Shown here one piece after another: positions 5,278 to 8,200 of a stretch of DNA of 64,000 nucleotides (its first letter is position 1; every line of letters begins with the position of its first letter). The translations under genes and the position numbers were made by a program. Source of the stretch: Myxococcaceae bacterium (GTDB lineage Bacteria > Myxococcota > Myxococcia > Myxococcales > Myxococcaceae). Location: positions 154,174 to 218,173 of the forward strand of contig JBGALX010000012.1 of NCBI GenBank assembly GCA_044223505.1, written 5' to 3'. Below the pieces are notes generated by a model. It searched no databases. It was not told the DNA's origin and saw only the letters and a list, made by a program, of their open reading frames with translations.

Positions 5278-8200
5278 ATGCGCCACTCCTTCGTTCGTTC
5301 AGCGCTCGCTGCCGCGTTGTGCCTCGTCGCCGGCAGCTCGAGCGCGGAGCCCGCCGCGTGCCTGTCGTCAGACCCTTCGGTGTGGCCCGCGGCTTCGAAG
5401 CCGTACTTCATGATCATCGCCGACACCTCGGGCTCGATGACGAGCGACGTCGGCAACCCGGCCATCAGCTCGGCCTGCGGCTACGGCACGAATCGCGTCG
5501 CCCACCTGCGCTGCGCCATTCGCAACACGGTGCTCGCCTATGGCGGCCTCGCGAACTTCGGCCTCGCGACCTACCCGCGCAGACAGACAGGCTGCGGCGC
5601 CGCGTGCTTCAGCACGTGCACGTACGCCGACTATCCGAACAACACGACGAACCCTGGCTGCGGCCCCGGCCTCGGAGCGAATCGTCGCGGCGCCTTCATT
5701 CAGGTGCCGATGCTGCAAGACAGCTTCTGGCAGGTGCCGCCGCCCACCTCGAACAACGCGCAGATGTTGTCGTGGGTCGACAATTCGTGCACGGGCAACA
5801 CCGAGCTGTTCGCCGACGGCTTCACGCCGCTCAACGGAGCGCTGCGGGACATCAAGCGGTACTTCTCGGCCACCGGCTGGGTCGCGCAGGACAACAGCGT
5901 CACGTATCCGACGCCGCTCGCCACGCAAGACCTGCCGGGGATCGGCGTCAACGGAGGCACCGGGTGCCGCTCGGTGAACATCATCTTCATCACCGACGGC
6001 GGCGAGACGTGTGACACCGTCGCCGACGCCGTCGCTGCCGCACAGGACCTGTTCCAGAACGGCGTCACCGTCGGCGGCAAGACGTTCAAGGTCCGCGTCT
6101 TCATGGTGAACTTCGCCGGCGGCGGTCTCACCGACTCCGACGCCATCGCCGCAGCCGGCGGCACCACCGCTTCGCTGCTCGCCAACAACGAGAACGAGCT
6201 CTCGGCTGCGCTCGCGAACATCGTCGCCCAGGCGAACTCGGCCGAGCTCGGCGACAACGTCGACAACAACTGCAACGGCTGCACCGACGAGGGCCTGACC
6301 CACTACTGCAACCTGCGCGCGACTCCCGGCTGCTGCGCGTGGAGCACGCCCGCTCAGCGCACCGCGTGCGGCGCGAACGCGTGCGCGTGCTGCAACTGGG
6401 CCAATGCGGTGCAGCGCAACGTGTGTCTCACGAACTACCGCGGCACCATCACCGCCGCGAGCCCGCAGGGCGACCTCAGCCTGCTCCCCTGCACGACGGT
6501 GACGCAGAGCACCGACCCCAACACCTGGCTCACGGTGAACCCCGGCGACGTCTGCGACTCCACCGACAACAACTGCCAGAGCGGCGCCGACGAGGGCTCG
6601 CTCAAGTGCGGCCAGCCGCCGCACTGCCCGCAGGTCGAGGTGTGCAACCGCTTCGACGACGACTGTGACGGCCTCATCGACGAGGGCGGCGTGTGCAGCT
6701 CGTGCGCCGTGACTCCTTCGGCCGAGATTTGCAACGGCTGCGACGACGACTGCAATGGCATCGCCGACGACGGCCTCGGCCCGCTCGGCTCATGCGGTCA
6801 GCCGCAGCCCGCGATGTGCGCCGGCGTGCTCACGTGCCGGCCGCAGCAGGCCGTGCCGGCGGGAACGTGCACCGCCACCGGAGGCACCACTTGCTCGGCG
6901 ACTCCGACGGCCGAGGCTTGCGACGGCGTCGATAACGACTGCGACGGACGCATCGACGAAGACCTTCCGCTCACCGCGTGCGTGCCGGTGGGCACGCCTG
7001 CGAACCTCGTGCTCGACGGCGGCAGCCGGTGCCGCACCGGTCAGCTGCCGTGCAACGGCGCGTGCACCGGCTTCATCGGGCCGGTGGCCGAGACGTGCAA
7101 CGGCGTCGACGACGACTGCAACGGGCTCGTCGATGAGGGCGTCTCGGATTCGCTGGGCAACGTCAGCGGCTCGGCGTGCTGCCCTGCAGGCCGCTGCGGT
7201 ATCGGGCGGTGCGCGACAGGAACGTGGACCTGCAACCCCGGCGGCGCGGTGTTGATCTGCGCCGGCGGCGCAGGCCCGCGCGCTGAGACCTGCAACGGCG
7301 CCGACGACGACTGCAACGGGCTCGTCGATGACGTGCCCAACCTCGGCGCCGAGTGCGCGCCCGCTCCCGGCCGACTCGACTGCAACGTCGATGCGGGCCA
7401 GCTCGAGTGCATGAGCGCCACCTTCTGCCCGCCCGACGGAGGCTCTGGCGGTGGCGCCGGTGGTGGTAGCGGCACCGCAGGCGGAAGCGGCACCGCAGGC
7501 GGAAGCGGCACCGCAGGCGGAAGCGGCACCGCAGGTGGAAGCGGCACCGCAGGCGGAAGCGGCACTGCAGGCGGAAGCGGCACTGCAGGCGGAAGCGGCA
7601 CTGCAGGCGGAAGCGGCACTGCAGGTGGAAGCGGCACTGCAGGTGGAAGCGGCACCGCAGGCGGAAGCGGCACTGCAGGCGGAAGCGGCACTGCAGGCGG
7701 AAGCGGCACTGCAGGCGGAAGCGGCACCGCAGGCGGAAGCGGCACCGCAGGCGGAAGCGGCACTGCGGGTGGAAGCGGCACCGCAGGTGGAAGCGGCACT
7801 GCGGGTGGAAACGCGACGGCGGGTGGAAACGCGACGGCGGGTGGAAACGCGACGGCGGGTGGAAACGCCACCGCGGGCGGGGACGGCACGGGCGGCGGCA
7901 CCGAGACGAAGTCGGGGTGCGGCTGCGGCTCGGCCGACGGCACGGTCTTCTTCGCGCTCGGGGCGCTGGTGCGAGCGCTGGGCCGTCGTCGTCGCGGGCG
8001 TGCGTCGTCGAGCGGCGTCGGGCGGGTGTCGCTGTGGCTCGGCATGGTGGCGTTGGTGCTGCTCGCCGGGTGCGAGCGGCGCGGCTCCGAGCTCGTCGGC
8101 TCGACGGAGCAGGCGCTGGTATGCGTCGGCGGCTCGTCGTGCGGCGACACGCAGGTCGACCCGTTTCACTGCGGCCAGTGCGGCAACCGCTGCATGTTGG

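Follow-up and report, generated by a model that had tools for sequence, protein, structure and literature searches.

MYXO-CTERM sorting tags consist of an invariant cysteine (often two), a hydrophobic helix and a cluster of two to five basic residues. In canonical MYXO-CTERM proteins, the MrtX and MrtC substrates such as TraA, this tripartite tag is terminal, follows a disordered Gly-rich linker and belongs to a protein with an N-terminal signal peptide. MrtX cleaves MYXO-CTERM, the conserved tag cysteines are required, and lipidation of the tag cysteine, possibly by Lgt, has been proposed as the first step (Guo, Haft and Wall, mBio 2025, PMC11980579). Surface display of these proteins uses the type II secretion system, and internal MYXO-CTERM motifs are recorded as rare (PMC11980579). 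We analyzed a 64,000-nucleotide stretch of DNA from a Myxococcaceae bacterium (assembly GCA_044223505.1, contig JBGALX010000012.1, positions 154,174 to 218,173 of the forward strand), referred to here as the window. One open reading frame (ORF) of 1486 amino acids in this window, the query, shares the tripartite tag, the Gly-rich linker and the N-terminal signal peptide with canonical MYXO-CTERM proteins, but its tag is internal and a second export signal, of the lipoprotein type, follows it. The query ORF is a conserved fusion that derives from a translationally coupled two-gene module. It is reasonably likely that the two signals of this operon fusion act together as a membrane hairpin that is cleaved twice, giving two lipid-anchored products.

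An internal tag has been described for MXAN_5598 of Myxococcus xanthus, a probable fusion of two genes whose adhesin-like N-terminal part is proposed to be processed and surface-anchored (PMC11980579). As in the query, the MYXO-CTERM tag lies mid-way in a long ORF (PMC11980579). Compared by its published description, MXAN_5598 differs from the query in belonging to another family, with an outer-membrane beta-barrel and an OmpA domain downstream, and the passages of the paper that deal with it mention neither a lipobox after the tag nor conservation across a family (PMC11980579). For mid-protein sorting tags the same paper points to two experimental precedents, Navarre and Schneewind (1994) and Abdul Halim et al. 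(2017) (PMC11980579). Judging by that citation and the title of the work, the ArtA substrate of Haloferax volcanii (Abdul Halim et al., 2017) resembles the query in having a non-terminal tripartite tag that is processed. It is, however, an archaeal protein of the PGF-CTERM/archaeosortase system and a substrate of the twin-arginine translocation pathway. TraA and TraB of M. xanthus are an unfused equivalent, in that the ORF of a MYXO-CTERM surface protein overlaps the ORF of its partner in the envelope; their domains are unrelated to those of the query and the genes are separate. Our literature search returned no report of a lipobox directly after a MYXO-CTERM tag or of a conserved family of this kind, and nothing on an internal lipobox or on bacterial lipoprotein polyproteins with an internal signal peptide. 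Rare internal MYXO-CTERM motifs are thus known; new here are the lipobox directly after the tag, its conservation throughout the family and the occurrence of the hairpin in a second family.

The two signals of the query occupy residues 879–932, which read SGCGCGSADGTVFFALGALVRALGRRRRGR-ASSSGVGR-VSLWLGMVALVLLAGC. The Cys motif SGCGCGS begins at residue 879 (nucleotide 7912), with Cys-881 at 7918 and Cys-883 at 7924. It is followed by helix 1, TVFFALGALVRALG (residues 889–902, nucleotides 7942–7983), and by the Arg cluster RRRRGR (residues 903–908, nucleotides 7984–8001), so that the complete tripartite signature is present. The second signal, VSLWLGMVALVLLAGC (residues 917–932), ends in the lipobox LAGC at 8062–8073, with the codon of Cys-932 at 8071. 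This lipobox is preceded by 15 uncharged residues and fits the strict pattern [LVI][ASTVI][GAS]C. A positively charged n-region for helix 2 (+7) exists only when the RRRRGR...GR of the tag is counted. A hydropathy scan reveals exactly two internal hydrophobic segments, at residues 889–902 and 916–933; the third is the N-terminal signal peptide MRHSFVRSALAAALCLVAGSSSA (hydrophobic at residues 5–21), as expected for a MYXO-CTERM protein. Both internal signals are displaced from their usual positions. The tag ends at residue 908 of 1486, 578 residues short of the C terminus, and the lipobox cysteine is residue 932, whereas in an N-terminal lipoprotein signal it lies within about the first 35 residues.

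The reading frame across the junction is coding throughout. The GC content at third codon positions (GC3) in the ORF frame is 0.90–0.93 on either side of the junction and about 0.9 along the whole ORF except in the Gly repeat, so that no change of frame has occurred. Tandem Repeats Finder places a near-perfect 18-bp repeat of about 22 copies at 7462–7877, directly upstream of the tag; its translation is about 19 units of GGSGTA followed by four of GGNATA. Repeats of this type are liable to copy-number variation and assembly error, and the Gly-rich spacers of homologues differ greatly in length.

Hidden Markov model (HMM) searches were performed on an excised 57-residue fragment containing the tag. 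The fragment scored 20.4 bits with the MYXO-CTERM model TIGR03901 (cutoff 20, E 5e-4), which is marginal, and 18.5 bits with TIGR03382 (cutoff 15.85). When the full-length query was compared with NCBIfam, no model was reported. TIGR03901 detected all ten homologous internal tags that were searched; it was the top model for nine and exceeded the 20-bit cutoff for seven. Several fused proteins are named "MYXO-CTERM domain-containing" in the JGI annotation.

Homologues of the query all come from Myxococcota. The figures for the whole-protein search refer to 120 listed matches, of which 90 correspond to the first half only and end in a terminal tag, 18 are fused like the query, and 12 are fragments or other forms. 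For analysis of the hairpin, the query and the 18 listed fusions were combined with the fragment P0156 and with loci from two metagenome-assembled genomes (MAGs), L005 from an Archangiaceae MAG and L020 from a Myxococcota MAG, to give 22 fused sequences. The uninterrupted architecture is therefore present in 21 further sequences from about 20 other assemblies, with approximately 42–64% identity to the query. The tag cysteine, the helix, the basic cluster, the second uncharged helix and the second cysteine are retained in all 22. Because pairwise identity within the hairpin is only about 42%, this complete conservation is the main reason for ruling out chance. The tag cysteine and the basic cluster are separated by a median of 24.5 residues, and the second uncharged helix has a median length of 16.5 residues. 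The distance from the basic cluster to the second cysteine has a median of 26.5 residues (range 16–58), and the length of the loop varies widely. Several fused proteins have only the Arg cluster between the helices (RRRRLAAVAMVAVLSAC, RRRRAALASALLFIAC), which indicates that both signals share one basic cluster. The PS51257 lipobox core is fitted by 20 of the 22 sequences, and none has a lysine after the lipobox cysteine.

Fused proteins were recovered repeatedly and independently, with six members in the cluster of P0039 and three in that of P0016. The gene in L005 changes frame inside the Gly-rich repeat (about 7480–7530), possibly through an assembly error, and its first half is uncalled; the stretch from tag to lipobox is unbroken there and shares the frame of the second half. 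The window comes from an uncultured bacterium related to the Archangiaceae. The DinG helicase that it encodes is 79% identical to that of the Archangiaceae MAG GCA_016714225, which also carries L005, and 92% identical to one on a JGI contig that is syntenic around that gene. No protein from the syntenic contig is among the listed homologues, the expected position of the orthologue being about 30 kb beyond the flank that was compared. A contig scan with the generic MopE motif CDG[IVL]DNDC was swamped by matches and is no unbiased census; among the matches listed it returned a few stand-alone lipoprotein genes, one extra fused case (L020) and an Archangium family. A metagenome scan with the Cys-rich module that follows the lipobox yielded eight loci, all of them distant, and thus no close orthologue.

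In most relatives the two halves exist as separate proteins encoded by adjacent genes. The 90 first-half homologues end in a true C-terminal MYXO-CTERM tag, e.g. ...GGGGCSCEVGPG...LALALRRRRDARGAQEVVR, and are 1000–2500 residues long, mostly about 1300 or about 1700. A search with the second half (120 listed matches) returned mostly stand-alone proteins of about 920–950 residues. A canonical N-terminal lipoprotein signal, e.g. MALGPLKIGYVAAILGGLLFAASGCQTEAYCF, is present in 93 of these matches, and the lipobox cysteine of the stand-alone proteins lies at residues 11–45. Their genes are encoded adjacent to those of first-half homologues. Chondromyces crocatus contains two tandem modules, encoding proteins of 1302 and 944 residues and of 1327 and 943 residues, and in both the stop and start codons overlap as ATGA. 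The pair in Polyangium aurulentum (1298 and 927 residues) overlaps as TGATG. In both species a GAGGTG sequence is situated 6–7 nucleotides before the ATG and encodes the conserved tail "EV" (L002, 11970–11990; L087, 9885–9900). This stretch of the MYXO-CTERM tail seems to double as a Shine-Dalgarno-like ribosome-binding site for the downstream lipoprotein gene. E[VG] plus zero to three residues forms the terminus of 53 of the 90 terminal-tag homologues. At three further loci the gene order is reversed, with gaps of 10–18 nucleotides.

Pairs from C. crocatus CP012159 (P0058 and P0165) and P. aurulentum CP079217 (P0081 and P0148) were compared directly with the query. They are homologous to its halves, with about 50% and 53–54% identity, and carry the same signals in the same relative positions, encoded by tightly coupled genes. 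They differ from the query in being two polypeptides and in having a longer gene 2 product (about 930–945 residues), in which CxTEAYCF takes the place, after the lipobox, of the MXAN_6577-like Cys-rich module of the query. A one-base insertion or deletion near the stop/start overlap would yield exactly the fused frame.

The fused gene of locus L006 encodes 2208 residues. Its neighborhood (a CPBP protease, SLT, LAM_C and a WYL regulator) is the same as that of the split pair in P. aurulentum L087, and it retains a methionine at the former start of gene 2 together with the CTTEAFCF motif of the split lipoproteins. The subgroup of the query has another module after the lipobox and another gene neighborhood than L006, from which it follows that fusion arose more than once; synteny and the remnants at the junctions argue for at least two fusions. 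Neighbor-joining trees of the C-terminal domain required 16 changes of state by parsimony (12–18 over bootstraps), against 17–19 with shuffled labels. The tree cannot resolve the number of fusions, and only "at least two" is claimed.

A gene for a CPBP (Rce1-like) intramembrane protease was also noted 4–6 kb from the module at three loci of Polyangiaceae (L006, 3523–4458; L001, 16532–17521; L087, 1–34). At the two loci for which the flank in question was retrieved, L001 and L006, it adjoins a glutamyl-tRNA synthetase gene, and both of these copies score 88–89 bits with the archaeomyxosortase MrtA model, below its 200-bit cutoff. The Polyangiaceae gene might be a myxosortase of the MrtC type.

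These results bear on an initial annotation of the window, made from the sequence alone, which had described an internal sorting tag followed by a lipoprotein-type signal within one 1486-residue ORF and had proposed that two ancestral genes were joined. Sequence, hydropathy and HMM scores bear out the paired signals, the suggested TIGR03901 scan placing the excised tag above the cutoff, and the adjacent split pairs, with their terminal tag, lipoprotein signal and overlapping stop and start codons, support the two-gene ancestry. Because orthologues carry the same uninterrupted ORF, the motif is genuinely internal. The annotation had offered a real protein that is cut internally as the alternative to a joining of genes; this is now the better-supported functional reading, and it is compatible with the fusion origin.

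The same hairpin occurs in a second family. When every retrieved locus was compared with the hairpin pattern, matches appeared in the Archangiaceae MAG L040 (9254–15973) and the Archangium gephyra MAG L049 (9260–16756). The protein consists of a signal peptide, 1600–1900 residues of MopE repeats, and then CGCGATDGS...helix...RRSLRRR...helix...LLTGC. The C-terminal 530 residues are unrelated to the second half of the query and weakly resemble models of the gliding adhesin CglD and of metal ion-dependent adhesion site (MIDAS) adhesins. The presence of the hairpin in an unrelated architecture indicates a recurring device rather than a quirk of a single family.

The arrangement of the signals is topologically compatible with a membrane hairpin that is removed by two cleavages. 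Ancestral gene 1 would have encoded a secreted vWA-like MopE-repeat protein with a terminal MYXO-CTERM tag, and ancestral gene 2 a lipoprotein that combined MopE repeats with an FGE-sulfatase-like domain. In the fused protein the first half would be exported through the N-terminal signal until helix 1 stops transfer, running from the periplasm to the cytoplasm. The Arg cluster would then lie in the cytoplasm, where it could serve both as the basic tail of the tag and as the n-region of the next signal, and helix 2 would re-initiate export and present the lipobox at the periplasmic face. With helix 1 passing in and helix 2 passing out across the inner membrane, both large halves would thus be periplasmic. 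The tag cysteine would be lipidated and a myxosortase, a CPBP intramembrane protease, would cut after it, and the first half would be released and displayed on the surface via type II secretion. At the lipobox, Lgt and LspA would modify the cysteine and cut before it to leave the second half as a lipoprotein, and a hairpin peptide of about 50 residues would be discarded. Fusion of this kind would ensure that two partners, encoded elsewhere by overlapping genes, are synthesized 1:1 and inserted together.

Several observations weigh against dual cleavage. The tag score is marginal (20.4 versus 20) with no full-length NCBIfam model, helix 1 is short and contains an internal arginine (ALVRALG), and just 9 of the 22 lipoboxes fit the strict pattern given above. 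No myxosortase-like CPBP gene and no further MYXO-CTERM tag occur within the 64-kb window. Moreover, P0017 (907 residues, encoded on a single 4478-bp JGI contig) has the vWA/MopE part joined to the C-terminal domain without tag, helices or lipobox. Either a chimeric assembly or a real deletion, perhaps mediated by the MopE repeats, could explain this; the joining without a hairpin suggests that the halves can work as one chain. The fused protein might keep its hairpin uncut, as a permanent two-pass anchor in the inner membrane that tethers both periplasmic halves. The topology fits such an anchor equally well and the single chain of P0017 speaks for it, but an anchor needs neither cysteine, yet the tag and lipobox cysteines are kept in 22 of 22 sequences and the lipobox core in 20, and the split relatives carry removable signals, a terminal MYXO-CTERM tag and an N-terminal lipoprotein signal. 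We therefore regard the uncut anchor as unlikely. Processing of one signal alone is likewise a minor possibility: LspA might, e.g., free the second half while the uncut hairpin keeps the first anchored in the inner membrane, or the roles of the halves might be exchanged. Such processing would account for the marginal HMM score of the query tag, for the three of ten homologous tags below the cutoff and for non-canonical lipoboxes such as PMAC, MPAC and GSGC; it leaves unexplained why both cysteine positions are invariant in the 22 fused proteins, and seven of the ten tags do pass the curated cutoff.

The second half could also mainly be produced by internal initiation, so that the locus acts as two genes although the frame is open. 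The start codons proposed in the initial annotation, GTG at 8026 and ATG at 8044, are indeed present, translation of gene 2 is coupled to that of gene 1 in the split relatives, and a methionine is kept at the old start in P0014. As usable starts they fared poorly: the product from 8026 has no basic n-region and that from 8044 has only 10 residues before the cysteine, there is no GGAGG on the plus strand in 7443–8316, and no promoter-like site is found in 7000–8300. The lipoprotein signal is therefore complete in the fusion alone. Among the hairpin sequences compared, most fused homologues lack a methionine between the basic cluster and helix 2, and internal initiation would in any case leave synthesis of the full-length chain unblocked; we judge it very unlikely as the main source of the second half. 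An artefact of sequencing or assembly, or a very recent loss of a stop codon in an organism that has two genes, is most improbable; the initial annotation had taken stop-codon loss or an assembly error as the likeliest reading. The repeat of about 22 copies just upstream is error-prone, and in the related MAG L005 the Gly repeat contains a frameshift. The junction itself (7912–8073) is non-repetitive, however, with a GC3 of 0.90–0.93 in frame, and the frame from tag to lipobox is uninterrupted in 21 other sequences from independent assemblies, L005 included. In addition, the tail and n-region of the query have already been cut to an eight-residue loop, unlike the product of a fresh stop loss.

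The coordinates of the query features are listed in Table 1. The initial annotation had named MopE-type repeats, a vWA domain and an FGE-sulfatase domain, and of these labels only the first is confirmed on the query, where PF11617 identifies 10 MopE repeats (E 3.2e-36) as the sole Pfam match. Neither vWA model (PF00092, PF13519) matches the query at E ≤ 1, although DTSGSM is present at 5422; among homologues VWA matches 2 of 12 (best E 2.4e-6) and VWA_2 three, and P0058 is named "VWFA domain-containing protein" by one source. FGE-sulfatase (PF03781) has no Pfam match in the query and matches 5 of 13 homologues weakly (best E 2.2e-4); P0165 is named "Sulfatase-modifying factor enzyme domain-containing protein" by one source. 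A weak match (E 0.0011) links the fragment that begins at 8026 to the N terminus of NF041328, the MXAN_6577-like Cys-rich family. Profile searches against PDB sequences gave no match for the N-terminal domain and, for the C-terminal domain, a weak match over the GN..E, GG and GFR motifs that was not useful. For the C-terminal domain, an AlphaFold2 model built on an alignment of 13 sequences had a mean predicted local distance difference test score (pLDDT) of 51, too poor for a fold search.

Table 1. Features of the fused ORF, in window coordinates
Feature	Position	Strand	Basis
Fused precursor, single ORF, 1486 residues	5278..9738	+	ORF listing; homologues of equal architecture
Sec-type signal peptide MRHSFVRSALAAALCLVAGSSSA, residues 1–23	5278..5346	+	Hydrophobic residues 5–21, by inspection; predicted cleavage site
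Divergent vWA-like domain, approximate boundaries	5395..6260	+	MIDAS-like DTSGSM at 5422–5439
First-half MopE-type Cys-rich repeats	6553..7320	+	Motifs at 6553, 6643, 6730, 6919, 7096, 7291
Gly-rich spacer	7429..7911	+	Tandem Repeats Finder, translation
Internal MYXO-CTERM-like tag	7912..8001	+	TIGR03901/TIGR03382 scores, hydrophobicity, conservation in 22/22
Short loop ASSSGVGR, residues 909–916, predicted cytoplasmic	8002..8025	+	Sequence; lies between helices 1 and 2
Helix 2 (lipoprotein-signal h-region) and lipobox LAGC	8026..8073	+	Hydrophobic residues 916–933; fit to PS51257 core
Second-half Cys-rich module (CGDTQVDPFHCGQCGNRC...) and MopE repeats at 8332, 8557, 8764, 8974	8074..9048	+	NF041328, MopE motifs
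Conserved C-terminal domain ending GFRCCFTSDPSL, distantly FGE-sulfatase-like, approximate start	9049..9735	+	PF03781 in homologues

Other genes in the window were also noted. An extracytoplasmic function (ECF) sigma factor gene lies on the minus strand at 9681–10238. Three tandem paralogues follow on the plus strand (10378–11913, 11935–14118 and 14085–16055), with a mutual identity of 30–32% and Gly-rich linkers. None has a Pfam or NCBIfam match; the first two have lipoprotein-like signals, and the start of the third is uncertain. The 875-residue protein encoded at 258–2885 contains a bpX6 domain of the MoxR-vWA-beta-propeller ternary system (PF19922, E 1.7e-16), and a 487-residue protein encoded on the minus strand at 31660–33123 contains an anthrax lethal factor-type (ATLF) domain (PF07737, E 2.8e-15).

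A position at an end of the protein is part of the definition of MYXO-CTERM tags and of lipoprotein signals alike, and a conserved family with the two back to back in mid-protein would show that recognition does not depend on this position. The case escapes automated annotation, and most sources leave the proteins unnamed or call them "hypothetical" or "MopE-related". By the Rosetta-stone argument, the fusion implies that a vWA-like MYXO-CTERM protein and an FGE-sulfatase-like lipoprotein act as a 1:1 pair at the cell surface. The family offers natural substrates for questions raised in the 2025 myxosortase paper, namely which enzyme lipidates the tag cysteine and whether internal tags are processed (PMC11980579). 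More tentatively, myxobacteria may repeatedly make a bacterial "polyprotein", one precursor exported by the Sec route, from a translationally coupled gene pair, with a minimal two-helix hairpin that is cut by myxosortase and by Lgt/LspA, a shared Arg cluster, and two lipid-anchored products that go to different destinations. If true, it would provide a natural substrate with which to test whether Lgt lipidates both kinds of cysteine, and the myxosortase and lipoprotein pathways would both accept internal signals.

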